From positions 1 through 56,044 of the IMG/VR virus record IMGVR_UViG_3300011114_001021: a DNA stretch of 56,044 nucleotides. One strand, given 5' to 3'. Under the pieces are notes generated by a model. That model had not been told where the DNA came from and ran no database searches. It was given only the letters and a program-made list of their open reading frames with translations. The stretch's first letter is position 1, and every line of letters starts with the position of its first letter. This DNA comes from a virus. Its lineage: Duplodnaviria > Caudoviricetes. Positions 5,675-46,040 of the stretch are shown piece after piece. The position numbers and the translations under genes were made by a program.

Positions 5675-5748
5675 CAGTATACCAAGAATTTTGAGGATGT
5701 AAATAAAAAAGTGAAAGTATTTTCAAGGCTTAATATCAAGCACTTGCA
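5675..5748 (-). promoter_or_regulatory. early promoter cassette with exact IHF consensus
   Basis: Minus strand TTTAC...TGGTATACT; plus strand TATCAAGCACTTG matches WATCAANNNNTTR. Confidence 0.7.
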
Positions 5749-28488: not shown

Positions 28489-29691
28489 TTAAAAAAATGT
28501 TTCCAATGAAGAAGCTTGTCCAGAATCAATGCTTCTTCTAACATTATCTTGAATGAGGAAATCACCAGGGTAATTATCAAGTGGAAGCTTATTTTCTAGA
28601 AACGCCTTTACCATTCGAGCCGCATGTTCAGCCGTTGTAACTGGAACATTCTGGCAGATGTGATTGAAATTCCTCTTGGCATTATGAACCTGAAAGTCTA
28701 GGGGCATTTTCATGATCGAAAGACATTCACGAACCGTGAGGAATCGATCTTCTCGATGATGGGTAAGCATCGTTGGCATGTGACCGACAAAGGCTCCGAT
28801 GATATCACATGGCACCTCAATTTGCTTTCGCATGATGTTTCCGCCCAATCCTAATTTCAAGTGAATATCAGAACATCTTTTGGCGAGTTTGGGAAAGCCA
28901 TGGGCGTCCATCCATTTTCCAACTCGAAGATAGTCATGACCGGATGCGGCTTCGATTACTCGAAGAACATTGGCCGTCCGCGTTAGCGAAGAAGCAAATT
29001 TAGCATGCGACATGCCTCCATGAATTTCTTCGAGCACGTAACGGTAATAAGGATTGTCTGAAGGTGTTTTTTCATTGAGTGTAATGACCGACATTGGATC
29101 GGCATGATGTGCCAATTTGGCGCCATCGATAGTCTCTTCGATCCGTTCATGGCAACCAGGATTGCAAGATTCCAACGTTGGAATTTTATCTCCTTGCCAA
29201 AAGAAGTAGAAAGTTCGTTCACGAACCTGTGAAAGTCCATGGGTTAAAGATCTGGTTTTGAAGATTGAAAAGGCATAACCATTCTCTCGTCCGATCCGCC
29301 GCAGACGCTCCACAACGGGTTCTCCGAGCTTGGATGCCAGCCGTGGCGCATTCTCGCCATACATTACTCGTGGCTTCATGGAAGAGAGGACGTATTCCGC
29401 GGAACGGAACATCCATTCATTCATCGGAGAATTGCCCGCGGCGGATTGAGATAGTGCCGAAAGACCTGCGCACGGGCAAGTTGTCGAAACAACATCGACT
29501 GCATGAGGATGTTTACCACCTTCATCTAGCAAAATATAGGGTACCAGATTGTCATAGTAGTTTACCAGATGATAATCATGGGCTTTGAATGGCGAATATG
29601 ACAGAAGATAGTCTGGCGGCGTGTCGAATATATTTTGAGCGGCGAGTGTCATTCCGCCGATAAGAGGAACGATTGAGGCGTGTTTAATCAT
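28489..29691 (-). CDS. C5 cytosine DNA methyltransferase-like protein
   Basis: Catalytic PC in TCPCAGLS, ENAP, QVRERTF, R.LTVRE. Confidence 0.8.
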   Translation of the reverse strand: MIKHASIVPLIGGMTLAAQNIFDTPPDYLLSYSPFKAHDYHLVNYYDNLVPYILLDEGGKHPHAVDVVSTTCPCAGLSALSQSAAGNSPMNEWMFRSAEYVLSSMKPRVMYGENAPRLASKLGEPVVERLRRIGRENGYAFSIFKTRSLTHGLSQVRERTFYFFWQGDKIPTLESCNPGCHERIEETIDGAKLAHHADPMSVITLNEKTPSDNPYYRYVLEEIHGGMSHAKFASSLTRTANVLRVIEAASGHDYLRVGKWMDAHGFPKLAKRCSDIHLKLGLGGNIMRKQIEVPCDIIGAFVGHMPTMLTHHREDRFLTVRECLSIMKMPLDFQVHNAKRNFNHICQNVPVTTAEHAARMVKAFLENKLPLDNYPGDFLIQDNVRRSIDSGQASSLETFF

Positions 29692-30806
29692 ATAAAAAAT
29701 TCATCGAGGCCACCAGATATTTGAGTGGCTACTTCTAATTTATCCGATCTTTTTCTATCGGGGACCGGAAAATCTTGGGTGCCATTCCAATAAGGATAGA
29801 ACTCCCTGGAGAGGTGGATAGAATGAGGTTTCTCCATGAACTTAAAATCGAGCTCGCCCTTTCCATTCAAGAGATAGTCCGTCCAACGAATAAATTTAAT
29901 TCCACGCTCCTTCGAAAGCGCTTCTACATCCCGATTGAAAGTTCTACGAATAGCATCTCTCTCGTGCCATGAACCCCAGAATGGTTTGCCTTTGTAATAA
30001 CCAGTCTTTGGAAGCTTGCGCGATTCGTTTTCAAGCGGAAGCAATTCATAGATAGCCGTGTCTTTGATGGGTAACGCATCAACGGCCTGAACATATCGCT
30101 TGGCTAAAGTCGCGGCGTTTTCAAAGGCATCACCTTCCAATTGACAGAGATGATGACGTACGTCAATATTGCCAAAGTAGAATTCCGCGGAAGTTACTCT
30201 GTCGAAGGAGGTAAACTCTTCGATGAATGTATTAAGCCCCGTTGTCAATGCGCCATTCAGAGTCTTAAATGGAATGGAATTTACAGTCCATCCTGGGCGA
30301 TGCATGCAAATCGAATGGGAGTCTCCAATGACAATCCTATCCGTGATGTGTGGAAATCGAATCTTGGTACTTTCTCGGCGCATGCGCTCGAGATTTTTAA
30401 TGTCGACGTCGAGCCATTCGGCCTGAATCTCCTTCTTATTACTCGTCGCATTCTGAATGCGTTCTTCAATCATCTCATCGATCTTAGGAAAATCTATGCC
30501 TAAAGAATACACCTTGCCTTTAAATTTAGAAAAGTTTCGTATGTTCCAAGCATAGGGAAATGATTGAACACCTCCAAAGAGATTTAATGTTCCAGCCCAA
30601 TCTGAACCCCAATACACATATAGTACATCATATTCATTGTGATCTTGATGTGCCGTGCCCGCCCAATTGATATCGACGACGTCGTACTTTCCAGTCTGCC
30701 GAATCTGATCCGCATAGATGATGCCTTGGGCGGATCGATGGGATGCCAGACGAGGAACTATGGGGATGAAGGGTGCGACTACCAAAGCCTTAGATTTCTT
30801 ATTCAT
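29688..30806 (-). CDS. SGNH/GDSL-like protein in modification cluster
   Basis: IGDSH, FGNIDVRHH, SIHL motifs. Confidence 0.55.
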   Translation of the reverse strand: MNKKSKALVVAPFIPIVPRLASHRSAQGIIYADQIRQTGKYDVVDINWAGTAHQDHNEYDVLYVYWGSDWAGTLNLFGGVQSFPYAWNIRNFSKFKGKVYSLGIDFPKIDEMIEERIQNATSNKKEIQAEWLDVDIKNLERMRRESTKIRFPHITDRIVIGDSHSICMHRPGWTVNSIPFKTLNGALTTGLNTFIEEFTSFDRVTSAEFYFGNIDVRHHLCQLEGDAFENAATLAKRYVQAVDALPIKDTAIYELLPLENESRKLPKTGYYKGKPFWGSWHERDAIRRTFNRDVEALSKERGIKFIRWTDYLLNGKGELDFKFMEKPHSIHLSREFYPYWNGTQDFPVPDRKRSDKLEVATQISGGLDEFFI

Positions 30807-31121
30807 TCAATAACCTATTCCAAAGCCATCGCCAGAGCAAAAGTCACAATGGCCATTGCCATAGCCATAGCCATCGCCATGGCCATCGCCATCACCGGAG
30901 CCATCGCCAAAGCCATCGCCATAGCCATCGCCATCACCTGAGCCATCGCCAAAGCCATCGCCATAGCCATAGCCATAGCCCGAGCCATAGCCCGAGCCAT
31001 AGCCATAACAATAGCCATCGCCATTGCCATAGCCATCGCCATGCGAGTTCTGAGAATTTTCAAAGTTGACGGGGATTCTAGTTGGGCGAAAGACTCTAAA
31101 TTTTATTTCGCTATGCATCAT
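30807..31121 (-). CDS. Gly-Tyr/Asp repeat protein with 'FENSQNSHGDG' leader
   Basis: 104 aa; hexamer repeats at about 30820-31045. Confidence 0.7.
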   Translation of the reverse strand: MMHSEIKFRVFRPTRIPVNFENSQNSHGDGYGNGDGYCYGYGSGYGSGYGYGYGDGFGDGSGDGDGYGDGFGDGSGDGDGHGDGYGYGNGHCDFCSGDGFGIGY

Positions 31122-31122
31122 T

Positions 31123-31782
31123 TTAAGTTATCTTAAGTTTATACGGTTTTGAAATAATCACGGCCATAAAATCTTCGGAAATTCTAGATGTTGAACCGCG
31201 AATCGGCACTAGATTGATATACTGATCAACATATTTCCACATTTTTTCATACTCTTTTTTCGTCACAAAGCCCTTAAGCTTCTTACGATGTTTTGGAGCA
31301 ATGGGAATCTGAAATTCGTGCCGCAACCGTTTGCCGCCGTCATCATAAAATGCGGGAATATTTGCCGCATTATCAGATAGTGCTCCATCATACGCATTAG
31401 TGAAATGTTCCATGATTGGATTATCATCGATCGCGACATGCAATTGAATTTCTTTTCTTATTTGAAAAGCTTCATTAAATTTTGCCACCTCCGGATGATG
31501 GATTCCCATCGATCGGTTATCGATTTTGTCTCTGAGATATTTTTCAATCTCATTGCGATCATCATATGTCAGTATGGCAAATTTAGGATTGTGCTCAAGA
31601 CAGTAGCCAAACTGATTGATTCCCAAACGCGAATAGCACTCGAGTGCATTCTGAATCGTTTGTAATCCTTCTTTGCTAATTTTAATGTTAAACATTTTCA
31701 TAATTCGATATCCTTGCCCGGTGCCATAGCCATTGCCATCGCTATGCGAGTTCTGAGAATCTTCTTCTAAAAGCTTAAGCAT
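31123..31782 (-). CDS. hypothetical protein with N-terminal 'EEDSQNSHSDGNGYG' tag
   Basis: 219 aa; 43 bp at 31722-31764 identical to 145-187. Confidence 0.7.
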   Translation of the reverse strand: MLKLLEEDSQNSHSDGNGYGTGQGYRIMKMFNIKISKEGLQTIQNALECYSRLGINQFGYCLEHNPKFAILTYDDRNEIEKYLRDKIDNRSMGIHHPEVAKFNEAFQIRKEIQLHVAIDDNPIMEHFTNAYDGALSDNAANIPAFYDDGGKRLRHEFQIPIAPKHRKKLKGFVTKKEYEKMWKYVDQYINLVPIRGSTSRISEDFMAVIISKPYKLKIT

Positions 31783-31804
31783 AATGATATACTATACCCA
31801 TTTT

Positions 31805-32842
31805 TCAGGAAGTAAAATCTAATTCTGCACGATTGTAATTTTTATTCCAAAGATGCCGAGTCGTATGCCCATTCAATATGACTTTACCTTCAGGATGCTT
31901 GGCCAGATTAAAACAGTCGGGGAAGATCCAGTTGTAGGGGATGTGCCTGGTCGGCCGTTTTGTGCCGTGGGTGATCGCAATATGCTTAAAATTCATGCAT
32001 AATTTATCCTCTACATTGAGGAATCGCTGCCTCTGCATTGGATTGTCCGTGTGATTGCAGAAGTAATTCATCCACCTGAGCCAGTCAACGCACATTCGAT
32101 TCTTCGGAACGAATTCTCCATCCGCGTCGATTTCATACTTGCACTTGCCGTTATATTGTACACCGGTGTATTGAAGCATGCCATCGAAAAAACCTGTGCC
32201 TCCAAATAACACTGATTCCGGATCTACGAGGTACGGGCATGACATGGCCAAGTAACGCGCGGCGTTTTTGCATGGATAGAGAGGAGAACGAAATCTTTGT
32301 TCAGATTTGAAATATGCTTCAAGAATCTTGGCAAATCCCATCATCGAGTATCGTTTTCCATTCGTCAAGTGCCCCTTAAGCGCTCGCGCGGCCTGAAGCG
32401 GCCCACTCAGAAGCCATTCTTTAACGTCGGTTCCTTTTGGATAGTAAATTTGAAAGAGATCTGATCGAGCATGGCGATTTGTTTTAAAATGCTCTCGCGT
32501 AGCATCAGCACCTTTGTCCATGAGATGCATCAACGTCCCCCAATGTTCATTGGTAAATGAAAAAACAAGGGCGTAATACAACCTCTCTTCCGCATCCGTA
32601 ATCATCGACATCAAGTCAATGAAGGGATGTTCATCCCAATGAAGGCGATGGGAGAAGATCTGGAATTCATCATGAAGCAACGTATCTTCGCGCAGATCAA
32701 ATTTACCACAGAATTCAAAGAACTTCGCTTCGCGTTCATCCTGCGTCCAAGCATGCATCCACGAAAGAACCGGTTTCTTGTTGACGATTTGAATGGTTCG
32801 ATCTGTATTTGGATATTCAATATTGTTGTTCGAAGAGCTCAT
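31805..32842 (-). CDS. helical (aGPT-Pplase/HhH-like) DNA base-modification protein
   Basis: FFEF...D.LL, C-terminal EDKLC..FK; context in modification cluster; start reassigned to MSSSNN. Confidence 0.5.
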   Translation of the reverse strand: MSSSNNNIEYPNTDRTIQIVNKKPVLSWMHAWTQDEREAKFFEFCGKFDLREDTLLHDEFQIFSHRLHWDEHPFIDLMSMITDAEERLYYALVFSFTNEHWGTLMHLMDKGADATREHFKTNRHARSDLFQIYYPKGTDVKEWLLSGPLQAARALKGHLTNGKRYSMMGFAKILEAYFKSEQRFRSPLYPCKNAARYLAMSCPYLVDPESVLFGGTGFFDGMLQYTGVQYNGKCKYEIDADGEFVPKNRMCVDWLRWMNYFCNHTDNPMQRQRFLNVEDKLCMNFKHIAITHGTKRPTRHIPYNWIFPDCFNLAKHPEGKVILNGHTTRHLWNKNYNRAELDFTS

Positions 32843-32845
32843 AAT

Positions 32846-32853
32846 TATAAATA
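32846..32853 (+). promoter_or_regulatory. late promoter TATAAATA driving HNH gene
   Basis: Exact match on plus strand, 60 nt upstream of the HNH ORF. Confidence 0.65.
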
Positions 32854-32912
32854 GAAATGCTGATCGCGGTACGTCAATACCCACCAGCTCTACAATAACC
32901 AATTAAGCTATT

Positions 32913-33455
32913 ATGCAGCATAAAATTATTTATCATAAGCATCACATTATCCCTCGTCATATGGGAGGAACAGATGATGCGTCCAATATCATAAACCTCA
33001 CTATTGAAGAACATGCCAATGCACATAAACTTCTATATGAGAAATATGGAAAAATTGAAGATCGTTTAGCATGGCAAGGTCTTAGTGGTATGATTAGCAA
33101 AGATGATATTATTCTACAGTTAATGATTGAAAATGGTCGACGAAGCGGATTGGCATGCAAAGGAAAACCTCTTAGTGATAGAAGGAAAATCCATCTAAGA
33201 TTGGTTAATCTTGGAAAACGCCAATCCGAAGAGACTCGTAACAAAAAAAGAAAACATCTATCTAAGCGATCAGCCCAATTTCGAAATAGAATTAGAGAAA
33301 TTAGAAAATATACGGACAATTGCTGTAAAGGTGTTATAGCATACAAAATCCAATATCGCTCTATTAGAGCTGCCGCTAAAGCGATAGGATACTCCCATTC
33401 AAGTGTTCGAATGTATTGTCTAGATCCGAATAATAACGATTTCAATTTTGTTTGA
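32913..33455 (+). CDS. free-standing HNH homing endonuclease with NUMOD3-like tail
   Basis: HKHHIIPRHMGG.D..SNI..LT.EEH..AH; GKRQSEETRNK; only convincing plus-strand gene. Confidence 0.85.
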   Translation: MQHKIIYHKHHIIPRHMGGTDDASNIINLTIEEHANAHKLLYEKYGKIEDRLAWQGLSGMISKDDIILQLMIENGRRSGLACKGKPLSDRRKIHLRLVNLGKRQSEETRNKKRKHLSKRSAQFRNRIREIRKYTDNCCKGVIAYKIQYRSIRAAAKAIGYSHSSVRMYCLDPNNNDFNFV

Positions 33456-34328
33456 TATCCTTTTTCCAAGGACGCCAAGAGTCGGTTCGAGTAACAATTG
33501 ACATATCATGAGGTGTAACGTCCCGCCCAACATTCCACATCAGCCGACGCTTCTTTCCATCTTTGGGAATCACTTTCCACACTTTGGCATCGTAAGTTGC
33601 CACGGTCGGAAACGGAGGCATGTCTTCCTCTCTGGCAGCTTGGGCAAATTCTAGCGGTTCAGAAATAACCTTCGCTCGTCCTAATTCGCCGGCTTGCAGA
33701 TTTCGCGCTACGGCGATACATGTAAACTCGGCATTAGGCCAAGCGATCTGCAAAGCTCGCGCAAGCACACCGGTTGAAATTGCCACGTACACTTCATCGG
33801 GTTCAGGAATTTTCGAAGCCACATGAATGATCGCGGCCGTCGTCAGTTCATGTTTCAAGCCAAGAGGAATGAAGTATGCGCCATTCTTAGATGCCCATTC
33901 TCTGGCCCACTTATTTAAATTTGGCATCGCGGCGATTCGTTCGAAGATTGGTCGTGCCCCTCGTTCAATGCAGCATGCCTGATGAAGGGAAATCTCTTTG
34001 GATGCTGGCATGAAAAGAACAACTTGCTTGCCACTATGCCTCTTCACAACATCACAGAGAGAAACTCCGGCCAGTCCTACACGAGGCTGACAATAGACGA
34101 GTGTTTGATTTGGAATCTTTGAGCAGAGTAAATCGCCGGCGCGAGCTTTGGTTCCTACAAATCGTCGCGAACGACATCAACTCCATCATGATGAATTACC
34201 ATGGGATCTGGATTATACGGAGTCCAACCTTCACAGAGACTGAGGTAATAATCCCGCGCTTCTAGGAGTCCCATTCCCATGGGAAGATCTTTGTTATTTC
34301 CATCTATGATGTGTGTATCGTGGCTCAT
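33442..34328 (-). pseudogene. PLP-dependent enzyme (fold type II), split by frameshift near 34157
   Basis: 57-aa N-terminal ORF ending VVRDDL*, continuing in the -1 frame as VGTKARAGDLL...YCQPRVGLAG...STG...YDAK.W...WNV. Confidence 0.75.
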
Positions 34329-34436
34329 AGAATTATTTAGTCCCGAATAATTTTTCCCAACATGCTTTGCACATTCTAATAAGAGGAGCTATTTCAACTC
34401 CACAGAATAAACACATCCTCGATTTCTCAATCTTTT

Positions 34437-35639
34437 TCATTTGTAAATTTCAGGATCGATCCAGTCAGAATAGTCCGGATGCGTTTTGACGAGCTTGACA
34501 TATGCGGCTGGAGTTAAATTATTTGCTTTGATAACCTCATCGTAGTAGAAATTTTGATTCGAATCATTGAAGGTTTTTACGAGTCCTAGATCGAGCATCG
34601 CTCGATGTCTTCCAAATGGATGGATGATCTTCGAGGAATTGAATATCTTATCGCGGTCAAGGTGATTATATGCTTCTCCCATTCGAACATAGTTTGTCGC
34701 GTACCTGATGTAGTCACAGGCAACATCTTCAAGGTTATATGGAACTTCTCCAGTATCGAGACATGCCATTTCCATTACACAATCAAGGAATTCATTCGTC
34801 TTCATTTTCTCGGCCGGTTTAGCTAAGTAAGAAATACATTGCTCGGCATTTGAACCATAGAAGAACATTGAATCGCGCACGACATACTGAGGAAACCAAT
34901 CGGCGATATCTGCTACAATGGCTGCATATTGAAAGTGATATTGTCGAAGACCATTCTGAACATTCCAGTCAAGCATGAACTTGCCTACTTCTCGCAGTGT
35001 TCTTTTTTCCTTTGAGGCATTCAACCAAGCAAATAAATCCTTGGCCAGTCGAGGAGCATATTCGGAGAGGTAATAATCGCCTCCGCGCTTATATCTGGAT
35101 GGCGGCTTGGGAAATGCTGGAAATTGATATCCAACAGACGTGTAGAACGTGCCCTGTTCGTTCCGAACCATTTCGACCATCCGATCTATAGAGTTGGCTC
35201 GATGGAGCTTCAGAAGGAGCGTATTGTGATAACCAGAGGGCTTCTGTGCGTAATTGATACCAGATCCACATACTCTGTGGAGAATGAAAATGTAAAACCA
35301 TTCGGATGGATAAAACTCCGAAGTTTTTCCAGTCCAATTGTGGGCTACCTCATCACGCTGAGATGTAATCTTACCGGCCTTCATCTTCTCCCAGTATGGA
35401 TGTTCCGGAGTCCACCCATAGAAAACATCATTTACGATCTGGGAAAATCCTGCATACTTACGTTCGACTACATCGTAAAGCTCAACATTCTCCATCAAAT
35501 CATCTCCCATCTTTGAATCTGTGTGGAGAGTCATGCCGTAGGGAGGATTCTTCGAAGTATTGCAAAGATCTTGCTGCTTCTTAGCCAGATTGTAATATCG
35601 AAGAAAGTCTGAGTAGTATGGAGTTGGTGTGATCTTCAT
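34437..35639 (-). CDS. helical (aGPT-Pplase/HhH-like) DNA base-modification protein
   Basis: LYDVVERKYAGF, HRVCGSG, C-terminal EDVACDY; context. Confidence 0.5.
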   Translation of the reverse strand: MKITPTPYYSDFLRYYNLAKKQQDLCNTSKNPPYGMTLHTDSKMGDDLMENVELYDVVERKYAGFSQIVNDVFYGWTPEHPYWEKMKAGKITSQRDEVAHNWTGKTSEFYPSEWFYIFILHRVCGSGINYAQKPSGYHNTLLLKLHRANSIDRMVEMVRNEQGTFYTSVGYQFPAFPKPPSRYKRGGDYYLSEYAPRLAKDLFAWLNASKEKRTLREVGKFMLDWNVQNGLRQYHFQYAAIVADIADWFPQYVVRDSMFFYGSNAEQCISYLAKPAEKMKTNEFLDCVMEMACLDTGEVPYNLEDVACDYIRYATNYVRMGEAYNHLDRDKIFNSSKIIHPFGRHRAMLDLGLVKTFNDSNQNFYYDEVIKANNLTPAAYVKLVKTHPDYSDWIDPEIYK

Positions 35640-36088
35640 GCTAAAATTTCATCATATTGAATACCCACCTCATTGAAAAGATTGCGCGTAAACTGACATG
35701 ATTCTTTCCATCGTTCCGGAACGTTCTGAATGGGAATGACAACTCGTCTGATGCCAACTTGAATGATACCCTTGGCGCACTCTCCACATATTGGAAGTCC
35801 GATAACATAGAGAGTTGCACCTTTCAAAGAAATGCCATGAATCGTTGCATTGTAAATAGCATTCATTTCCGCATGAATCATGAATTTGTACTTCATATCT
35901 CGATCATCGAGCCGTTCAGATAATTCATCGATGCCACGTGGAAATCCATTATACCCAGTCGCTAGGATTTTTCGATCGTAGACGGCGATAGCACTCGTGC
36001 GAGTGGATGGATCTTTTGACCATGATGCAATTTCCTTGGCCAGGCAAAGAAATCGAACGTCCCATTTATTATCCGGAGGTATGTTCAT
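35636..36088 (-). CDS. dCMP deaminase
   Basis: SKDPST, TGYNG, HAEMNA, PICGECAK. Confidence 0.92.
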   Translation of the reverse strand: MNIPPDNKWDVRFLCLAKEIASWSKDPSTRTSAIAVYDRKILATGYNGFPRGIDELSERLDDRDMKYKFMIHAEMNAIYNATIHGISLKGATLYVIGLPICGECAKGIIQVGIRRVVIPIQNVPERWKESCQFTRNLFNEVGIQYDEILA

Positions 36089-36776
36089 GGTCGAAAAATT
36101 TCTGGATTAAGTGATAATGTTTCGAATAGATGTGCAGTGAACCCACATTCCAATAGATATTGCCCAATTCAACTCGATCAGATTCCAACACCAGAGAATT
36201 GTAATCATCTATCAAATCATTTAGAACGTGATAAGCCCAGGCTCGATCATTTTTATATCCATAGACCAGATCATTGCTCCTCATCGAAACGGATGCATGC
36301 ATTTTTCCATCTCGAATTAAATATTGAACGGCATTGGTGCACATGAAATCTGACATGCCATCCCGACAGAAATCAGACTGCATCTCCGGACGAGTGTAGA
36401 TCATGCTCGCTCTTCGAGTATTTCTATCATTTAAAAGTGCTTCAAGGCAATGATTATACTGATATCCATTCGACTCTGACCACACACACCAGCCGTAATT
36501 CGAATTGATCAACCCACCTTTCGAAGCAACATCTTTCCAGATTTTCGGAACTGTTCCCGGAATATCACTGATAGACAAAGATTGCGATTTATACCACGCA
36601 ATCTCGCGATCGATGTAGTTCATATCTGGATCGCCAAAGATAGAATTCTCATCGGCGATAAATGAAGCATTGATAATTTCCAGAACCGTTCCACCACCTT
36701 TATCATCGATCGAATTACCATACCGCAAAAGTTTTAAAAACTCAAGCCGAATGTCATTAACAAAATTCATATTCAA
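36069..36776 (-). CDS. thymidylate synthase-family dCMP hydroxymethylase (T4 gp42-type)
   Basis: NSNYGW, DFMCTNAVQY, MRSNDLVYGYKND (Asp at the dCMP-specificity position), GSLHIY. Confidence 0.8.
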   Translation of the reverse strand: MNMNFVNDIRLEFLKLLRYGNSIDDKGGGTVLEIINASFIADENSIFGDPDMNYIDREIAWYKSQSLSISDIPGTVPKIWKDVASKGGLINSNYGWCVWSESNGYQYNHCLEALLNDRNTRRASMIYTRPEMQSDFCRDGMSDFMCTNAVQYLIRDGKMHASVSMRSNDLVYGYKNDRAWAYHVLNDLIDDYNSLVLESDRVELGNIYWNVGSLHIYSKHYHLIQKFFDHEHTSG

Positions 36777-37198
36777 TGATTGTTGCCACGCTTTGGACGA
36801 TTGAGGAAGTCATGATTTAGATTCTGACCATCCATCTTTTTACGGCACCATGCAACAATAAAAGAATAGTAGTTAATGGCGTCTTTTGCCGAATCTTCAA
36901 TCGATTCAAAATTTGGCTTATACTCAGGATCGTGGACCATTGCAGCGATGACGGATTCCATTCGAAGCTTCTTGGCATGAATCAGGTCCATGATAGTTCC
37001 AACGCCATTCGGATAATAGTCGGCCTGTTTAATTTTCGAATGATCATTTTGATAATCGATAGATTTACGTTGCTGTAACGCAATACATTCGCCGAGAACT
37101 TTGACCGATTCGGATTCTTCATTTACCAAGTCGCGAGGCTTTGCAAAGTTAGCCAGTATTTTAGATTCTATAGAGATGCCAGGCAGTTTATATTTCAT
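36773..37198 (-). CDS. nucleotide modification associated domain 1 (DUF1599-like)
   Basis: KSIDY...K.LR...ESIEDSA.D.INY. Confidence 0.7.
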   Translation of the reverse strand: MKYKLPGISIESKILANFAKPRDLVNEESESVKVLGECIALQQRKSIDYQNDHSKIKQADYYPNGVGTIMDLIHAKKLRMESVIAAMVHDPEYKPNFESIEDSAKDAINYYSFIVAWCRKKMDGQNLNHDFLNRPKRGNNH

Positions 37199-38745: not shown

Positions 38746-39762
38746 TCATCGATCTTCACAATTGATCTTGCCAGACATTTTTTCCTGAAGGGATTGGATG
38801 TCCGCATCGACCATCAGACGTGCGAGGTCGGCGCATTTCGTCTTCGGCTCCCAGCCGAGTTTCTGCTTCGCCTTGCTGTAATCGCCGATGAGCAGCTCCA
38901 CTTCAGCGGGACGGAAATAACGCGGATCAATCTCGACATGTTTGTTCCAGTCGAGACCGGCGTGGCCGAAGGCAATTTCCAAAAATTCGCGGATACTGTG
39001 CGTCTCGTTCGTGGCCACGACGTAATCATCCGGCTGTTCCTGCTGAAGCATCAGCCACATCGCCTCGACATATTCCTTCGCGTAACCCCAGTCACGCTTG
39101 GCGTCGAGATTGCCGAGGAACAGCTTGTTTTGCAGACCGGCCTTGATGTGGGCGATGGCCCGGGTGATTTTGCGCGTCACAAAAGTTTCGCCGCGCCGGG
39201 GCGATTCGTGGTTGAACAAAATTCCGTTGCTGGCGTGCAGGCCGTAGGACTCGCGGTAGTTCACCGTGATCCAGTAGGAATAAACCTTCGCGCAACCGTA
39301 GGGGCTGCGCGGATAAAATGGCGTCGTCTCCTTCTGCGGCACTTCCTGCACCAGACCGTACATCTCGCTCGATGACGCCTGATAAAAGCGCGGCTTGAGT
39401 CCCGTCTCGCGGATCGCCTCCAGCAGCCGCACCGTGCCGGTGGCGGTGATGTCGGCGGTGTACTCCGGGCTGTCGAAACTGACGCGGACGTGGGATTGCG
39501 CGGCGAGATTGTAAATTTCCTCCGGCTGAATTTTTCCGAGCAGCCGCGCTATCGCGCTGCCATCGCTCAAATCGCCGTAATGCAAAAACAGCCGGGCCTT
39601 GCTGTCGTGCGGGTCGCTGTAAATATCATCGAGCCTTCCGGTGTTGAAGGTGCTGGCGCGACGGATGAGGCCGTGTACTTCATAACCTTTGCCCAGCAAA
39701 AGTTCGGCGAGATAGGAACCGTCCTGTCCGGTGATGCCGGTGATGAGTGCTTTTTTGCCCAT
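38746..39762 (-). CDS. gmd: GDP-mannose 4,6-dehydratase
   Basis: [46 protein letters not shown]; visibly GC-rich relative to flanks. Confidence 0.97.
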
Positions 39763-39796
39763 ATTTTGTCTATTAAGTTAACGGGGTTATAGAATA

Positions 39797-39920
39797 GGGA
39801 GATTGCAGCCGGATATAAACCGACATCTTCAGCTTAGAAAGCTGATGTTTTTACGAAGGGTGACCTCAGTCGCGCCCGCCTCTGCCGAGGCGTTTCATTC
39901 GTATTTTAAACTATGCAATC
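39797..39920 (-). ncRNA. tRNA-Arg(UCU)-like RNA with 52-nt structured D-loop insertion
   Basis: Acceptor GATTGCA/TGCAATC, D stem GTTT/AAAC, anticodon arm TCAGC-TTTCTAA-GCTGA, T arm GTCGG-TTTATAT-CCGGC; insert closed by TACGAA/TTCGTA. Confidence 0.7.
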
Positions 39921-39927
39921 AAAGTGC

Positions 39928-40073
39928 GGTCCCAGTGCTTATTCCATGTCGGCGTCTTTTCGATTCCGATGGGCTCAAGTCATGAATTTCGCTGTAGCTC
40001 ATCATGATCTCTTACCAGCTCTTGGCATCGCGACCGCCTTACGGAGGCTACAGTCACTGAATCCACTGGGACC
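39928..40073 (-). ncRNA. putative structured ncRNA (10-bp closing stem, possible pseudoknot)
   Basis: GGTCCCAGTG/CACTGGGACC ends; CTGTAGC/GCTACAG and TCATGA/TCATGA pairings cross. Confidence 0.55.
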
Positions 40074-40136
40074 TGTCAGTCAGTCTCTCATGCAACTCAA
40101 TGAGAAGCAAGGATCTTAGAGATTGCTGATCTGACA
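40074..40136 (-). ncRNA. putative three-way-junction RNA element
   Basis: TGTCAG/CTGACA closing stem, AGCAA/TTGCT arm, TCTCAT/ATGAGA arm. Confidence 0.45.
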
Positions 40137-40146
40137 AAATTATTAA

Positions 40147-40225
40147 GCCGAATTGAGGTAAGTCTAGGGACGACGACCCCATCCCCCTAGAACCGGGGCA
40201 TGAAGCCCCTGTCCCTCAATCCAGC
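40147..40225 (-). ncRNA. putative three-way-junction RNA element
   Basis: GCTGGATTGAGG/CCTCAATTCGGC closing stem, GGGGC/GCCCC and TCTAGGG/CCCTAGA arms. Confidence 0.5.
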
Positions 40226-40234
40226 AAATCAAAA

Positions 40235-40311
40235 TGGTAGCGGGTGAGGGATTCGAACCCTCGATCTCAACGTTATGAGCGTTGCGAGATAACCAACTTC
40301 TCTAACCCGCG
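40235..40311 (-). tRNA. tRNA-Met(CAU), initiator-like
   Basis: CGCGGGT.../ACCCGCT with unpaired 1:72, CTCATAA loop, GGTTCGAATCC, CCA. Confidence 0.9.
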
Positions 40312-40318
40312 TTAAATT

Positions 40319-40326
40319 TATTTATA
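40319..40326 (-). promoter_or_regulatory. late promoter TATAAATA for tRNA/ncRNA cluster
   Basis: Exact match 7 nt upstream of the tRNA-Met 5' end. Confidence 0.75.
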
Positions 40327-40358
40327 GGCGGCAGCTTTAGATTTGCCGAGCATTTTTA

Positions 40359-40892
40359 CTATGCAATCCAAGCTGGAACCTCTCGGCGTTTCCAAGAAAA
40401 TAGCTGTCTCTTCTCGCCGAGGTAGTAATTTCTATATGATTTAATCGAATCACCGAATACTTTGTATTCTTCGGGCATAGCCGGAGTCGGCTGTGTAAAT
40501 GAGCCTTCGACAATATTCTTTGGCGCGCAACTCAAATCTTTCGTCAATCTACTAGTAGCGTGAACCTTACCATATCGGTGCGTGTATTCTTCCATCAGAG
40601 AGACAAACATCTCGAATAGCCACGCATAATTAGAAGAACTATGCCTTGCCCAAATAGCCGAAGGATGATTGACGTGCGTGGCAGAATACAGACTTGATTC
40701 CCGATTATCGGGAATGCTGTATCGAGTTTGCCTTCGTCCAGTTTTGCTAATCCCTAGGGATTGAATTCCATCCAGAACTCTATGGGAATTCGAAAGCAAT
40801 TGAGCATATTCGAGAATCATTTTCACGCAATGTTTATCAACGTGCATCTTTGCACAGTCTTTTACATCATGCTCTAGATAAAATATGTTCAT
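40359..40892 (-). CDS. pyrimidine-dimer DNA glycosylase/DenV-related family protein
   Basis: MNIFYL...A..HVDKH.VKMILE.AQLLS, TH.NHPS..W, EY..RYGK.H, YR.YY; start reassigned. Confidence 0.75.
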   Translation of the reverse strand: MNIFYLEHDVKDCAKMHVDKHCVKMILEYAQLLSNSHRVLDGIQSLGISKTGRRQTRYSIPDNRESSLYSATHVNHPSAIWARHSSSNYAWLFEMFVSLMEEYTHRYGKVHATSRLTKDLSCAPKNIVEGSFTQPTPAMPEEYKVFGDSIKSYRNYYLGEKRQLFSWKRREVPAWIA

Positions 40893-40893
40893 A

Positions 40894-41130
40894 TCATTCA
40901 AAGAGAAGAGAGTCGCAAGATAGGCACCATGGATCGCGATTCCGAAGGGTGACACTATCAGTCATTCGGCCGCTCACTATCAATACATACATCTCATACG
41001 AATCAGTATGCACAGATTTGCGACTCTCAAAATTGTAATCGAGGTTCATTGATTCTACTTTTGGACTTCTGCACGCTCGATAAACATGCTTTCCATAGAT
41101 ACGCTCTTTTCGATTTCTCGGCCGTGGCAA
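40894..41130 (-). CDS. small hypothetical protein
   Basis: 78 aa ORF filling the gap; start uncertain. Confidence 0.4.
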   Translation of the reverse strand: MPRPRNRKERIYGKHVYRACRSPKVESMNLDYNFESRKSVHTDSYEMYVLIVSGRMTDSVTLRNRDPWCLSCDSLLFE

Positions 41131-41223
41131 TCTACACGGTTAGGATTATTTGAATTCTATTTAGTTTCAGCCTCGCCTCATCCCGTTCGTGTGTTTGCTC
41201 TTGGCCCACCGGAATTGAGCAGC

Positions 41224-41538
41224 TTAGCGCGCCCGAACATCCATGACTTTGGCGCGGACCATTCGAACCGCACCGCGGTGAGGCGCATAATGCCCAGTCT
41301 CCGGGCAACGATAGTGAACGCGATATCGAATCGTCGGATTGAGCGATTTCAAGGCTTTCAAAATATTGCGGCCGTCGACATCATTCTTGAGTTTCATAAG
41401 CGCGTTCGAGGTACCGCGGCCTCGATAGACCACATTCAGAATACCTGGGAGCGAAGCATCTTCGAAATAAGTGGCGCGATTGCTTCGATGATAGACCAGC
41501 CGCCGATCTCGATTTCCATTTTCAATTTCTTGTTTCAT
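41224..41538 (-). CDS. hypothetical early protein, paralog of 1356..1691
   Basis: Same promoter cassette; AS.PGIL.VVY motif. Confidence 0.7.
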   Translation of the reverse strand: MKQEIENGNRDRRLVYHRSNRATYFEDASLPGILNVVYRGRGTSNALMKLKNDVDGRNILKALKSLNPTIRYRVHYRCPETGHYAPHRGAVRMVRAKVMDVRAR

Positions 41539-41612
41539 TCTGAGATAATACTACCATGAAACATGTGAATGTAAATAAAAAAATGAAAGTATTTTCAGGG
41601 CTGAATATCAGG
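41531..41612 (-). promoter_or_regulatory. early promoter cassette (copy of 1684-1765)
   Basis: 82 bp with 3 mismatches by manual alignment. Confidence 0.8.
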
Positions 41613-41769
41613 GCTTTGCGCATGCGCGGCAAATTCGCTGCCAATATAACCAGTTGAACCGAATAATATGATCATAACTTATTTTCATTCCGCCACATCG
41701 CTCACCAAATTCATTCTGATATAAGAATACCATGTTCCGATTGAATGTACATCTGAAAGATGAAGAGAA

Positions 41770-42495
41770 TTACGATGTCAATAATTCTTGAGGAATAAGA
41801 AAATATTCAGAAAATCCTTTAGGCTTTTCGCATAATTGAAGTGACACACGATCTATGCATACATATCCATTTTGAGAAAACTTATCAAAGTCAAATCCGC
41901 CATTTTCTTTTTCCACAAATCCAGGATAGTCTTCGATGAATAAAAGGTTTTCTTTTTCTCCTTGATGCATCGACAATTGAAAGATTGGTCTAAAAGTAGT
42001 AAACATGTATTCACACGTCTTCAGGACTACCGATTCCATACCTTCGATATCGATTTTGATCAGTTTCGGTATAGGCAAAGAATGTTCTTCTATTAACTTT
42101 GGAATGGTACGATAGCTTATTTTTTGCACTGGCATTTCCCTGATGAGTTGACCGGGAGTTCCGATACAGTCACAGAATTTTGTAAATACCTCGTCTTGAT
42201 TTTTCTCATGTAGTGCCATGAGAATTGTTTTGACATTTGCATAGTCCTGTACATTTTGACGAAGTGCATCAATATTTCTTTCCGATCCTTCGATAGCAAT
42301 TACATTATATCCTCGCGCGGCAAAATATACAGATAGCACCCCTCGAAATGCTCCGATATCATATACCGTGTCTCCTTCTTTTAGAAATCTATCATAGATC
42401 TCAGGGCGAATTGAATTTGTCTGTTCTTCGATGTCATTAGGCTGTACATTAACTACTTGCCTGACTCGCTGCATCGCTTCGTAATGTGTCATCAT
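41770..42495 (-). CDS. FkbM-family methyltransferase
   Basis: YDIGAFRG, IKIDIEGME. Confidence 0.85.
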   Translation of the reverse strand: MMTHYEAMQRVRQVVNVQPNDIEEQTNSIRPEIYDRFLKEGDTVYDIGAFRGVLSVYFAARGYNVIAIEGSERNIDALRQNVQDYANVKTILMALHEKNQDEVFTKFCDCIGTPGQLIREMPVQKISYRTIPKLIEEHSLPIPKLIKIDIEGMESVVLKTCEYMFTTFRPIFQLSMHQGEKENLLFIEDYPGFVEKENGGFDFDKFSQNGYVCIDRVSLQLCEKPKGFSEYFLIPQELLTS

Positions 42496-42508
42496 TTTGA
42501 TTGATAGT

Positions 42509-43399
42509 CTATCTGATTAAGAAAGACAAATATGGTTTAAGTGTTCGATAATAGTATTCAAAACATTTTTCAGGAGTATGATTGGCATTGTAGTCATCAA
42601 ATGAACGCTGTGCGAGAGACACATATCTATTCTGATCGAGCATATATCGGATCTTCTCCTCTGCGTCTTGAAAATCGTCGCGAATAACGCAGTATTCTTT
42701 AAATGGCATTGCGTCATTCCTTACAGATTTATTTCTCATCTGAGGCATGATGATCGCGGTTTTAGTTGATGCTAATTCCCAGATCCTCCATGAATCATAT
42801 GAATTACCGAAATAATGAAGGCCAATCTTAGAACGATTGATCGCTTCAGCAAATTCTAATGATGGCTGATCTCCAGTGGGCTGAGGAGACACGGAGATGT
42901 ACCAACGCAAGTCACTCATTGCGCCTTGAGCAAGATTGACGATCTTTTCGACAAACGGAATCCGCCGAGCATTTGTTATTCCACCAATGAAACACACATC
43001 GATGTCTTTCGTATATGCCGCATTAAAGCGTGAAGGAATAGGAAAATGTATCGGATGTACTACACAGTGTCTAGGATTGCGAGTCTGATCTGTGTACTCT
43101 CGATGCATCACAACATCTGGCTTACGATCTGACCAGTGCTGAATATCTTCAAAGTCTGTGTCGTCATGTTGAATCAGAATAGAGTCTTGAAAGTGTTCAT
43201 TGATTAGACGATTCGTGATTGGAATAGTCCAATCTTCATGAAGATATAAAAATACTGCGCGGTATTTGTCTTTTGGAACAAATGACGTAACATTCCTTTC
43301 ATCGACGAAGTCACACGAGTATCCTAGTTTCTCAAACGACTTAAAGATGAAAGTCGAATTTGGCACCCATGAATAGTTAAAGAATAAAAAATCTTTCAT
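42509..43399 (-). CDS. GT-B glycosyltransferase (CgeB/GT4-like)
   Basis: DIDVCFIG, SKIGL...G...WRIWE. Confidence 0.7.
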   Translation of the reverse strand: MKDFLFFNYSWVPNSTFIFKSFEKLGYSCDFVDERNVTSFVPKDKYRAVFLYLHEDWTIPITNRLINEHFQDSILIQHDDTDFEDIQHWSDRKPDVVMHREYTDQTRNPRHCVVHPIHFPIPSRFNAAYTKDIDVCFIGGITNARRIPFVEKIVNLAQGAMSDLRWYISVSPQPTGDQPSLEFAEAINRSKIGLHYFGNSYDSWRIWELASTKTAIIMPQMRNKSVRNDAMPFKEYCVIRDDFQDAEEKIRYMLDQNRYVSLAQRSFDDYNANHTPEKCFEYYYRTLKPYLSFLIR

Positions 43400-43809
43400 T
43401 TATATTTAAGAGGATAATCCGTACATATGCCTTTGATATCCGGAAGATCTTGGGCGTAATGATGCATCACCGTGATTCCATTCTTTATATATACATTAGG
43501 AAAGCACCAGATATGCCCCTTACTTGTCAAAGTCATCTTATCCTTGTCGTGCCAGAACCAATTGATATCGAGCGTAGAAGCATATTGGGCCGCCTCAGTA
43601 TTCTTACAATGCACCCAGAGATTTTTATTGAAGAAATCTGAATCAATTTGATATTGAGGACCATCATGACCAAGGAATAGTTCTCCATTTATTCTCCAAA
43701 GATCGATTTCGACCTGATGGATCAGACTTATCTCAGAGACGTGATCTGGATTGTTCTCGAGGCTTAAGTCGCGACCGTTTATATTGCCTCTATGAGATAT
43801 GACGAGCAT
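43396..43809 (-). CDS. PLC/GDPD-like phosphodiesterase
   Basis: ISHRGN, EN, EIDLW, LGHD, HCKN, GICTD. Confidence 0.75.
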   Translation of the reverse strand: MLVISHRGNINGRDLSLENNPDHVSEISLIHQVEIDLWRINGELFLGHDGPQYQIDSDFFNKNLWVHCKNTEAAQYASTLDINWFWHDKDKMTLTSKGHIWCFPNVYIKNGITVMHHYAQDLPDIKGICTDYPLKYK

Positions 43810-43816
43810 TTGAGTG

Positions 43817-44371
43817 TTATTCTTTTACGGCTAGCGTATTACCTCCATCCAATACATTCACCCGATAGTTATATGATTTTAACTTATCTCTAAGCTTTTC
43901 ATTATATTCATGAGAATGTTCATGCTCAAAAAAGATTTCGCCAATCTTAACTCTATCAAAATCCAGAGCCAATAAAATTTTAGCATCATATCCTTCGGTG
44001 TCAATAAAGAGATGAGAGATCTCTTTTATCTCAAGAGAGTCAATGACAGTATTGAGGTCTAAGCATGGCAAATATATCTTTTCAGATTCCTTATATCCCA
44101 TACGATTCAATACGTGCGCCTCGATCAGACTAGCATGAGACTCGCAACCATTCTTTGGAAGAAAGAAACTCGTTATCCCACATCTATCACTGATCGCTAC
44201 GTTGACCGATATGAGTCGATCTCCTAAAAAGGCATAATCGTTTTTTGCCTTCTCCGTATATTTACTTATAGCATCGATAATAACAAATTTCTCGATATTT
44301 GAGATATTGTTTTGTATGAATTGAGTAACGTGATCATTGCCGACGTGACAACCTATTTGAATAACATTCAT
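43817..44371 (-). CDS. FkbM-family methyltransferase
   Basis: IQIG, NVAISD, IDTEGYD. Confidence 0.8.
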   Translation of the reverse strand: MNVIQIGCHVGNDHVTQFIQNNISNIEKFVIIDAISKYTEKAKNDYAFLGDRLISVNVAISDRCGITSFFLPKNGCESHASLIEAHVLNRMGYKESEKIYLPCLDLNTVIDSLEIKEISHLFIDTEGYDAKILLALDFDRVKIGEIFFEHEHSHEYNEKLRDKLKSYNYRVNVLDGGNTLAVKE

Positions 44372-45295
44372 TTATTTTTTTTTATTTTTTATCCTAGGAT
44401 TTTCGTTTAAATACCAATCTTCCCATTTCATCGGTTGATGACATTGATTGGTCCCTTCTGGTATACCAGGAGAAGAGATTCCTCCACCATCAACGTGAAG
44501 TGAAATACTATAATCACAAATACTAAGCTCTGGAAAATTTTTAGAGATATCGATGCCTCTATGCTCTAAATACATCTCACCGAATTTTGCAATTACGCCA
44601 CTTAGTAGTCCGTCCTGAAGTCTATGTCTATCGGCTTCACCTTTCCAGCATGCGCGCTCAATCACTCTCGAATATTCACCAATCGATATTAAACTATGAT
44701 CTTCTAGGTATTTAATCATTTGCTTCAAGCGCTTGAGATGGATGATCAATGTTCCAGTCGCGCTAGTATAGCCTTTTACGGTAATAGTACCACTTCGTGT
44801 TGAAATATCAAATGGCTTATAGAGATACTGACGATTTTTGCAGTCTGTACCAAACCAACGTGCCATTTCATTTGGAAGATCATTATATACTCGATGAATT
44901 CTAGATTCATGTTCATCTGGAATATCCGTGCCGGCTATAGCTATACAGTGTTGCGCCGAATCAAATACATCGACTACGTCTTGAAGCCAGTCCTTTCTCC
45001 AATAGTAATCGGCTTCCATGATGCATACAATATCAGACTCGTCGTCAGACATGATCATATCATATATCCTTTCGAATGTGGGTCCAACACCAGCATTCTT
45101 TCCGGTCAATAGTAGATCTACATTTGGATGATTAGCGTGAAAATTCAATAAGAACTGTTTAGTCTCTATATTTGATGAATCATCAATGATTTGAATACGA
45201 TTTGGCTTGATATCAGAATTGTTTAGAGCCGTCGCCAAACTATTCTTAAAGACTGCCAATCTATTATAGGTTGGCATATAGAATGTAATATTCAT
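44372..45295 (-). CDS. GT2-family glycosyltransferase
   Basis: MPTYNR, IIDDSS, EAD. Confidence 0.75.
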   Translation of the reverse strand: MNITFYMPTYNRLAVFKNSLATALNNSDIKPNRIQIIDDSSNIETKQFLLNFHANHPNVDLLLTGKNAGVGPTFERIYDMIMSDDESDIVCIMEADYYWRKDWLQDVVDVFDSAQHCIAIAGTDIPDEHESRIHRVYNDLPNEMARWFGTDCKNRQYLYKPFDISTRSGTITVKGYTSATGTLIIHLKRLKQMIKYLEDHSLISIGEYSRVIERACWKGEADRHRLQDGLLSGVIAKFGEMYLEHRGIDISKNFPELSICDYSISLHVDGGGISSPGIPEGTNQCHQPMKWEDWYLNENPRIKNKKK

Positions 45296-45301
45296 AAGAG
45301 A

Positions 45302-46039: not shown

Positions 46040-46040
46040 A

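Follow-up and report, generated by a model that had tools for sequence, protein, structure and literature searches.

The DNA analysed here, called the window throughout, is a complete IMG/VR virus record of 56,044 bases (IMGVR_UViG_3300011114_001021; CheckV completeness 32%). Within it, we characterize a cassette of minus-strand genes at positions 28489–37198 that contains a predicted deoxycytidine monophosphate (dCMP) hydroxymethylase and is a candidate system for the hypermodification of phage DNA. Judged from its gene content, which includes a gp43-type DNA polymerase, RegA, UvsX, a gp41-type helicase, a primase and ribonucleotide reductase, the source is a distant T4-like phage. Near-identical DNA is present in river and lake metagenomes from eight studies. 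Among 50,697 cultured phage records, there is no match to the cassette region (megablast) or to its helical protein p400 (tblastn). A preliminary description of this DNA had listed eight co-directional genes as a possible pyrimidine hypermodification pathway. All eight are present on the minus strand, at or near the places it gave, and are listed below; it had overlooked an HNH gene, two non-conserved open reading frames (ORFs) and an apparent frameshift in the gene of the pyridoxal phosphate (PLP) enzyme.

28489–29691, minus strand: C5-cytosine methyltransferase-like protein (PF00145, 43.7 bits against a cut-off of 22)
29688–30806, minus strand: p372, a two-domain protein with a predicted beta-glucosyltransferase-like N-domain (residues ~1–150) and an SGNH C-domain (~150–341)
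31805–32842, minus strand: p365, a divergent protein resembling amino acid:DNA transferases (AADT)/aGPT-Pplase2, assigned by its AlphaFold2 (AF2) model, by Foldseek and VIA comparison to PUGT, and by an E-D-K-x-C motif
33442–~34328, minus strand: PLP enzyme of the phage M6 gp52 type, fold type II (phrog_7093; two frames in this record)
34437–35639, minus strand: p400, a helical protein assigned to the aGPT-Pplase/HMUDK_hel/AADT superfamily, with an E-D-x-x-C motif
35636–36088, minus strand: dCMP deaminase (PF00383, E = 1.1e-17; phrog_174, E = 1.3e-36; HAE and PCxxC motifs)
36069–36776, minus strand: gp42-type dCMP hydroxymethylase of the thymidylate synthase (TS) family (phmmer matches to T4 gp42 structures)
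36773–37198, minus strand: p141, an Nmad1 (DUF1599)-like, all-alpha protein (phrog_18404 'hydrolase', E = 1e-9)

Conservation of the cassette

A pattern search showed that at least 561 IMG/VR stretches encode a relative of p400, and 80 of these loci were taken for comparison. p400 is encoded in 80 of 80 loci, and the genes recur in the order p141, hydroxymethylase, dCMP deaminase, p400, (p365), (PLP enzyme), p372, (C5-methyltransferase-like protein), uvsX and gp41. The genes for p365, the PLP enzyme and p372 vary in their relative order between loci, with uvsX and the gp41 helicase following them. The constant presence of p400 and the recurring gene order indicate that the arrangement is not due to chance; synteny across related phages, proposed beforehand as a check, thus speaks for the cassette.

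Gene presence was counted over the 44 loci with 5 kb or more of sequence downstream of p400. p372 is found in 44/44, the PLP gene in 40/44, p365 in 32/44 and the C5-methyltransferase-like gene in 10/44. Wherever p365 occurs, the PLP gene accompanies it (32/32), and p365 is never found without it. The combination of the PLP gene, p400 and p372 lacks p365 in 8/44 loci, and p372 and p400 stand without both p365 and the PLP gene in 4/44. Since p372 lies beside p400 in all 44 loci, the constant core of the cassette consists of p400 and p372.

The cassette occupies an informative position. In Serratia phage Muldoon, the slot flanked by uvsX and by the pair of p141 homologue and gene 42 holds an annotated beta-glucosyltransferase and a beta-glucosyl-HMC-alpha-glucosyltransferase. 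The Muldoon gene order therefore places the cassette at the site of the enzymes that tailor hydroxymethylcytosine (5hmC, or hmC) in related phages.

The hydroxymethylase and the precursor module

The TS-family enzyme matches the T4 gp42 structures 1b49, 1b5d and 1b5e over residues 6–228 (phmmer, E = 1.1e-75), compared with E = 2.7e-8 for the best thymidylate synthase, and it shares 54–56% amino acid identity with gene 42 of many T4-like phages. It contains RSNDLVYGYKND. The DFMCTN motif, which includes the catalytic Cys, aligns with DFMCTN of T4, and YKND aligns with FRND of 1b49. The last Asp of YKND corresponds to the site at which wild-type gp42 (1b49) and the variant chain 6l18 (Asn) differ; we take the cytosine-selecting Asp of gp42 to be D179 of T4. 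The structure match and the aligned Asp agree with the earlier suggestion that the enzyme is of the dCMP type and not a dTMP synthase. By homology, it is a gp42-type dCMP hydroxymethylase, the predicted maker of hydroxymethyl-dCMP (hm-dCMP).

The dCMP deaminase, already named in the preliminary description and assigned here by its PF00383 match, is flanked in the window by the genes of the hydroxymethylase and p400 and is found in 38/80 loci. Several loci carry the cassette without a detectable deaminase (for example L012–L014, L042, L052, L054, L055 and L081). p141 is found in 43/80 loci, and its homologue in Muldoon lies directly upstream of gene 42. The p141 of the window gives no Pfam match; in 20 of 27 family members PF07659 matches at E ≤ 0.1, all below the cut-off, with a best E of 1e-4. 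p141 is probably a divergent Nmad1-like protein that serves the precursor module as a nucleotide helper of the pyrophosphohydrolase type. Homology assigns both the deaminase and p141 to a predicted precursor module that is commonly located beside such hydroxymethylases.

p372 and its fusion with p400

The AF2 model of p372 (pLDDT 89.7) resolves the protein into two domains. The C-domain resembles sialate O-acetylesterase 7pzh (Foldseek E = 1.4e-5; VIA Z 14.6, rmsd 2.9 over 162 residues), so structure prediction bears out the SGNH fold that the preliminary description had suspected. Foldseek returned 53 PDB chains at E ≤ 0.001, led by SGNH esterases, and VIA returned 164 chains at Z ≥ 8; the peptidoglycan O-acetyltransferase PatB is among the SGNH neighbours (Z 12.7). 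Residues G161-D162-S163-H164, G212, I214, D215, S329 and H331 are invariant in 48 sequences, and we take these stretches to be the block I Ser, the block III Gly/Asn region and the block V His of SGNH enzymes. The final block reads S-x-H instead of D-x-x-H, with the Ser and His retained.

The N-domain gives other matches. The p372 family aligns with the Muldoon beta-glucosyltransferase in hhalign (93%, E = 3.4e-7, 88 columns, residues 5–103 against 1–99), and this alignment pairs NLFGG of p372 with INFFGG of the glucosyltransferase. The T4-type beta-glucosyltransferase structure 1qkj is matched by Foldseek at E = 5.2e-4, and weak PF09198 matches, none over threshold, lie inside the p372 homologues of three of four related contigs. 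On the predicted structure, p372 is a chimera, newly recognised here, of a T4 beta-glucosyltransferase-like N-domain and an SGNH domain. The SGNH domain (residues 150–341) stands where the UDP-glucose-binding Rossmann C-domain would be, which argues that p372 is not a glucosyltransferase.

p372 directly follows p400 in 44/44 loci, and the two are also found as single polypeptides: seven representative proteins from metagenomic clusters, 639–790 aa in length, carry p372 at the N-terminus and p400 at the C-terminus. A cultured phage has a comparable protein. The first ~340 residues of Aeromonas phage 31 ORF233c (795 aa) match p372, and its C-terminal part gives a weak HMUDK_hel match (E = 0.0036, below the cut-off). 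The same phage has a gp42 homologue (52% identical); profiles A6 and A2 (A2 being the p365 family), run without a positive control, found no match in it. In excerpts of PMC2993671, phages 44RR, 31 and 25 of Aeromonas are described as having genes 42 and 56 but no glucosyltransferase. We infer the functional coupling of p372 and p400 solely from these fusions and from synteny.

Directly upstream of the fusion gene in Aeromonas phage 31 is ORF234c, a member of the sodium:solute symporter family (PF00474, E = 7e-53), which may import a donor substrate.

The helical proteins p400 and p365

The p400 family comprises 158 clusters at 50% identity. In its deep alignment, R122, G125, S126, E304, C308 and D309 are nearly invariant. 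Aligned by hhalign, the p400 and p365 families match with 85.6% probability (E = 5.6e-6, 138 columns), and the alignment pairs both E-D-x-x-C motifs as well as a common P-x-LVDP-x-S motif. In the ESM Atlas, HMUDK_hel is assigned to part of the members in 25 of the 30 clusters nearest to p400; the feature score of 0.97 connects p400 to clusters with HMUDK_hel on 11–31% of members, which we treat as a lead only. The best local alignments of p400 to M6 gp51-type and gp55 sequences pair the Cys motifs, without significance. Other comparisons were uninformative: Pfam searches of 68 p400-family representatives gave one weak ADDT and one weak MGDG_synth match, BLASTP of p400 against p365 and against ORF233c was not significant, hhalign of shallow alignments (A1 and A2) with single gp55 and gp51 sequences of M6 gave a probability of 0.1%, and phmmer or hmmsearch of p400, p365 and their alignments against PDB sequences found nothing meaningful. 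The relationship to p365 supports the placement of p400 in a putative new clade of the aGPT-Pplase/HMUDK_hel/AADT superfamily, as the partner of p372.

The AF2 model of p365 (pLDDT 90, pTM 0.88) was compared with 350,542 PDB chains. PUGT (PaMx11 gp46, a glycine:DNA transferase; 8z2n_B) comes out on top in Foldseek (E = 0.073, prob 0.80) and also in VIA-align (Z 8.9, rmsd 4.2 over 227 residues, 9% sequence identity). Next come helix-hairpin-helix (HhH)-type 8-oxoguanine and 3-methyladenine glycosylases at Z 5–7.7, and the authors of the PUGT structure report the same glycosylase neighbours for PUGT (excerpts of PMC11472151). In BFVD, p365 matches best to an entry named 'Amino acid:DNA transferase domain-containing protein' (53% identity, E = 1.5e-30, TM 0.84–0.87), and among the top 18 matches listed, ranks 2, 4, 6, 8, 9, 17 and 18 bear the names HMUDK_hel, AADT or Pplase1; these proteins come from phiRSL1, PhiW-14, Lucky3, a Nodularia phage and SP10.

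Residues E278, D279, K280 and C282 of p365, which form the E-D-K-x-C motif, are invariant in 44 sequences. In a comparison of motifs only, the Glu...Cys spacing equals that of E-T-x-x-C in PUGT and M6 gp51 (E-T-V-L-C in the latter). The PUGT active site is described as E243, T244 and C247 (PMC11472151, in part), and Cys or Glu mutants of M6 gp51 and ViI gp247 are reported to be inactive (PMC8989533, in part). By predicted fold and by motif, and not by Pfam's criterion, p365 is a divergent AADT-like protein. The model of p365 and the alignment of p400 to its family are consistent with the earlier tentative assignment of both helical proteins to this superfamily. Directly behind the motif Glu, p365 and p400 have Asp, and the thymine-specific PUGT and M6 gp51 have Thr. 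It is speculation that this Asp could mark cytosine specificity, by analogy with the Asn-to-Asp switch between TS and gp42.

The PLP enzyme and the C5-methyltransferase-like protein

The 201-aa C-terminal ORF of the PLP gene in the window matches phrog_7093 at E = 4e-30, from profile position 71 on. The same PHROG is matched by intact relatives (E = 6e-34 and 3e-73) and by M6 gp52 (E = 2e-159), which is described as a PLP-dependent decarboxylase (PMC8989533, in part). The Schiff-base Lys (GTK in the window) and a YD-K-W motif are invariant in 24/24 sequences, M6 gp52 included. BLASTP of an intact relative against M6 gp52 is marginal (E = 0.002); the link to gp52 is drawn from the shared PHROG and the alignment. 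The gene is thus the PLP enzyme that had been reported at this place, now tied to the family of the M6 decarboxylase.

The N-terminal part of the gene lies upstream in another frame, with a tblastn junction at 34157, and intact genes in relatives encode 289–337 aa. Behind 34157, contigs from runs X1, X6 and X7 (three studies; X1 is maybe the source sample) have four additional bases, which rejoin the frames; a fourth run (X4) has no contig across this position. We read the frame break as a 4-base gap of this record only. A pseudogene and programmed frameshifting were both rejected as explanations, because public contigs carry the four missing bases.

Two subtypes of the PLP enzyme, ~40% identical, are distinguished by a window-like GTK and by a GGLK as in L007 (also L010, L062 and others), and which subtype a locus carries does not follow how similar its p400 is. 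Locus L085 shows another way in which this PLP family has been fused to a DNA enzyme: Erythrobacter phage vB_EliS_R6L gp1 (807 aa), annotated as a DNA modification methylase, combines an N6/N4-methylase domain with a PALP domain sharing 31% identity with the cassette enzyme.

The C5-methyltransferase-like protein aligns to M.HhaI over motifs IV–VIII and keeps motifs IV, VI, VIII and X; CPC, ENA, QVRER and QNVP are invariant in seven homologues. These C5-methyltransferase motifs are real, and PF00145 is over threshold as well. The PF00145 match begins at residue 62, and the AdoMet-binding N-terminus is atypical, with an invariant PLIGG and, by eye, no clear motif II acidic residue. This protein is an accessory member of the cassette.

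Searches for kinases and glycosyltransferases

The preliminary description had seen no P-loop kinase for 5-hydroxymethyluracil (5hmU, or hmU), and profile searches agree. The P-loop 5-hmdU DNA kinase family (PF18748) has no match in the window, which represents 32% of the genome, in any of five related contigs, of which two are 99% complete, or in the genome of Aeromonas phage 31; phage M6 served as the positive control and matches at E = 1.1e-19. In M6, the P-loop kinase gp54 (PF18748) neighbours the helical gp55 (PF18723, E = 8e-56). This adjacency suggests that an architecture of catalytic plus helical domain is common to both systems, with the kinase replaced here. The alpha-glucosyltransferase model PF11440 gave no match anywhere, controls included, and shows nothing.

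A sugar-nucleotide/glycan cluster at 38746–48079 encodes a GDP-mannose 4,6-dehydratase, two FkbM-type methyltransferases, a GT2 and a GT1-like glycosyltransferase, and a HAD + nucleotidyltransferase fusion. It may act on the host surface or on DNA. As a candidate part of the cassette it was rejected, since its genes occur in 0–1 of 80 related loci.

The cluster bears on a reading in which the window's glycosyltransferases glycosylate hmC, or hmC stays bare. The helical proteins would then be HhH glycosylase-like repair or anti-defence proteins, p372 an ordinary esterase, and no amino-acid-type modification would be made. We consider this very unlikely. Besides the cluster, it draws on the glycosylases that come next after PUGT among the p365 neighbours and on the lack of matches to the Pfam AADT-family models. 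Set against it, the viral proteins with names among the neighbours of p365 belong to AADT and HMUDK_hel rather than to the glycosylases, the PLP enzyme is of the gp52 type, the cassette is tightly linked to gene 42 across the 80 loci, p372 and p400 are fused in other phages, and the cluster genes are not conserved next to the cassette in the related loci.

A proposed pathway to modified cytosine

We consider it fairly probable that the cassette carries out a post-replicative, non-sugar hypermodification of 5hmC in phage DNA. The DNA of this phage probably holds a decorated cytosine that has not yet been described chemically. The interpretation in the preliminary description is supported overall, as each of its checkable elements held.

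In the proposed pathway, hmC would be incorporated into DNA as in T4, and the pair of p372 and p400 would act on its 5-CH2OH group in DNA. The beta-glucosyltransferase-like N-domain of p372 and the helical p400 would hold the DNA and the flipped base, and the SGNH domain would transfer an acyl group onto the hydroxyl, in the role that the P-loop kinase has beside its helical domain. The Glu...Cys motif of p400 and p365 would attack C6, so that an exocyclic methylene forms, as AADT enzymes do, and the 5-methylene would then receive an amino acid or amine through p400/p365. The PLP enzyme, of the gp52 type, would trim the group, most likely by decarboxylation, and the C5-methyltransferase-like protein may add an optional tailoring or protecting step. 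The expected product would be an amino-acid- or amine-bearing 5-methylcytosine derivative; in phages with p372 and p400 alone, acyloxymethyl-cytosine would be expected.

That last case touches on an alternative in which the SGNH/p400 pair by itself makes the final, stable O-acyl (for example O-acetyl) hmC. The acyl group would be no leaving group, and p365 and the PLP enzyme would serve a separate second modification or other sites. This is somewhat unlikely in our estimate. It accords with the 4/44 loci that have p372 and p400 without p365 and the PLP gene, with Aeromonas phage 31, which shows the fusion only (the A6 and A2 searches there being uncontrolled), with the O-acetylesterases and PatB among the nearest SGNH neighbours, and with a phage enzyme reported to O-carbamoylate 5hmC (PMC8670742, in part). 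The nearly invariant Glu...Cys of p400 argues the other way, being needless for mere DNA holding and pointing to C6 chemistry and substitution; so do the 8/44 loci with the PLP gene and no p365, which suggest that p400 can install a group that the PLP enzyme trims.

The proposed 5hmC pathway can be carried one step further, to a version that we put forward tentatively and hold to be possible rather than probable: acyl activation takes the place of phosphorylation. The chimera would O-acylate 5hmC, p400/p365 would put amino acids or amines in the place of the ester, and decarboxylation by the PLP enzyme would follow. The products would be the cytosine counterparts of 5-NeOmdU/5-NedU in a large freshwater and marine T4-like clade, and the fused core would be the missing hmC-tailoring activity of Aeromonas phages 44RR2.8t, 31 and 25.

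Several observations weigh against the assignment to 5hmC and to AADT-like chemistry. p400 has no Pfam match, and the HMUDK_hel and AADT models find nothing in it even at E = 10; among 76 of its relatives, one matches ADDT (E = 1e-3) and one HMUDK_hel (E = 0.01). Its family (A4) aligns with the M6-type AADT alignment at a non-significant 1%, and with single M6 gp55 at 5.6%. p365 likewise lacks any Pfam match, with none to AADT (PF18724) or HMUDK_hel at E = 10, either by hmmscan or in a six-frame search of the window, and hhalign of its family (A2) with the M6-type AADT alignment gives 0.2%, again not significant; its Z of 8.9 to PUGT falls in the range where common helical arrangements can score. 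The window's own p372 gives no PF09198 match at E = 1. Glycosyltransferases are encoded at 42509–45295 in the window and could act on DNA. SGNH enzymes are mostly hydrolases, and acyl transfer onto hmC is a guess. Finally, we infer which base is modified, what donates the acyl group or amino acid, and how the steps follow one another.

The identity of the base is the point on which a 5hmU route differs. Here the deaminase would yield hm-dUMP from hm-dCMP or from nucleotides derived from hmC, hmU would replace part or all of T, and the AADT-like and PLP enzymes would build a modification of the M6/ViI type. This route retains some weight because the AADT enzymes have been characterised on 5-hmdU-derived bases (all characterised ones, in excerpts of PMC8989533), because a dCMP deaminase lies within the cassette here and in the other loci counted above, and because one relative (G002, 99% complete) has neither ThyX nor a ThyA-family gene besides the hydroxymethylase. 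We nevertheless regard it as unlikely. The hydroxymethylase has the Asp of gp42, not the Asn of dUMP enzymes, and no deaminase is detectable beside the cassette in several loci. T4 carries cd along with gene 42 and is not known to have hmU in its DNA. TS-family genes on cytosine-modified contigs are reported to be accompanied by deaminase and PRA-PH-type pyrophosphatase domains (PMC8670742, in part). The Asp after the motif Glu in p365/p400, where PUGT and M6 gp51 have Thr, is suggestive only. The 5hmC route is better supported, mainly because one domain of p372 is still homologous to the beta-glucosyl-HMC transferase N-domain and the cassette fills the glucosyltransferase slot.

Other genes in and around the cassette

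Three further features lie within the run of cassette genes:

30807–31121, minus strand: p104, a Gly/Asp/Tyr-rich, repetitive ORF with no family match (homologues in 0/80 loci)
31123–31782, minus strand: p219, an ORF with no family match (homologues in 0/80 loci)
32913–33455, plus strand: HNH homing endonuclease, between the PLP gene and p365 (weak HNH and NUMOD1 Pfam matches; HH..N..H motif)

The HNH homing endonuclease, with homologues in 2/80 loci, is a passenger and lies outside the pathway. A spurious minus-strand ORF (32957–33478) overlaps its gene. p219 and p104 have a QNSH-DG-GYG motif in common, which is N-terminal in p219. Elsewhere in the window, 5736–6188 encodes a SegE-like GIY-YIG homing endonuclease (PF19835, E = 2.7e-34) that adjoins the ribonucleotide reductase genes, and 15076–16077 encodes a protein with a DarA_C domain (defence against restriction A, C-terminal; E = 3.2e-8), which may be an injected anti-restriction protein.

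Comparison with known systems

To our knowledge, all known DNA hypermodifications of the amino-acid or polyamine type are built on thymidine by way of a DNA kinase. The described tailoring of phage hmC that we found consists of glucosylation in T4 and arabinosylation, reportedly in RB69. To these is added O-carbamoylation (PMC8670742, in part). A full-text literature search returned no description of the cassette and no paper that joins a dCMP hydroxymethylase to aGPT-Pplase, or SGNH to phage hydroxymethylcytosine; the combination of hydroxymethylcytosine, PLP-dependent and phage led only to the two thymidine papers cited below. A 2026 paper on diaminopropane-thymine does not mention hmC, SGNH or esterase.

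If the proposed pathway is correct, it would represent a new class of cytosine modification, in which the hmC route is joined to AADT/PLP chemistry without a kinase, and a new way of activating a nucleobase hydroxymethyl group. The cassette is widespread, as the numbers of IMG/VR stretches and p400 clusters given above illustrate. It would offer a candidate answer to the fate of hmC in Aeromonas phages 44RR, 31 and 25, a question since at least 2010 (PMC2993671, in part). Enzymes specific for 5hmC in DNA are of use in epigenetic sequencing and help in understanding how restriction and CRISPR are evaded.

The thymidine hypermodification pathways of M6, ViI, PaMx11 and PhiW-14 use a dUMP hydroxymethylase, a P-loop 5-hmdU DNA kinase with a helical partner, an AADT/aGPT-Pplase2 enzyme and a PLP decarboxylase (excerpts of PMC8989533 and PMC11472151). 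The cassette resembles them in that a TS-family hydroxymethylase supplies a 5-hydroxymethylpyrimidine, the genes are clustered, helical proteins assigned to the aGPT-Pplase superfamily carry a Glu...Cys motif, and the PLP enzyme belongs to the M6 gp52 PHROG. As with M6 gp54 and gp55, a catalytic protein is paired or fused with a helical domain. In contrast to these pathways, the hydroxymethylase is of the dCMP (gp42) type instead of the dUMP type; a chimera of beta-glucosyltransferase N-domain and SGNH domain stands beside the helical domain, with no P-loop kinase found in the cassette; the helical proteins fall outside the Pfam models and have Asp, not Thr, after the motif Glu; and no radical S-adenosylmethionine (rSAM), flavin adenine dinucleotide (FAD) or acetyltransferase genes are seen in the cassette.

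Compared with PUGT, whose substrate is 5-PmdU, p365 has the same two-helix-bundle, HhH-glycosylase-like predicted fold (227 of 288 residues aligned) and an E-x-x-x-C motif near the C-terminal part. It differs from PUGT in being ~55 residues longer, in the low identity noted above, and in showing no significant profile match to M6-type AADTs.

The MetaGPA study established 5-carbamoyloxymethylcytosine as the product of a 5hmC carbamoyltransferase (PMC8670742, in part), and that study does not mention GDSL, Pplase or pyridoxal. Both systems appear to be non-sugar 5hmC routes of uncultured phages, with a TS-family enzyme, a dCMP deaminase and a MazG/PRA-PH-type pyrophosphatase alongside. The enzyme there is a TobZ-type carbamoyltransferase, whereas SGNH and aGPT-Pplase-like proteins are encoded here, and the product proposed for them is a prediction.

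A further known system is the glucosylation of hmC in T4, which relies on gene 42 and alpha- and beta-glucosyltransferases. The cassette shares with it the gp42 orthologue, the slot between gene 42 and uvsX, and the homologous N-domain of p372. Unlike in T4, the SGNH domain of p372 replaces the UDP-glucose-binding C-domain, and AADT-like and PLP partners are added.

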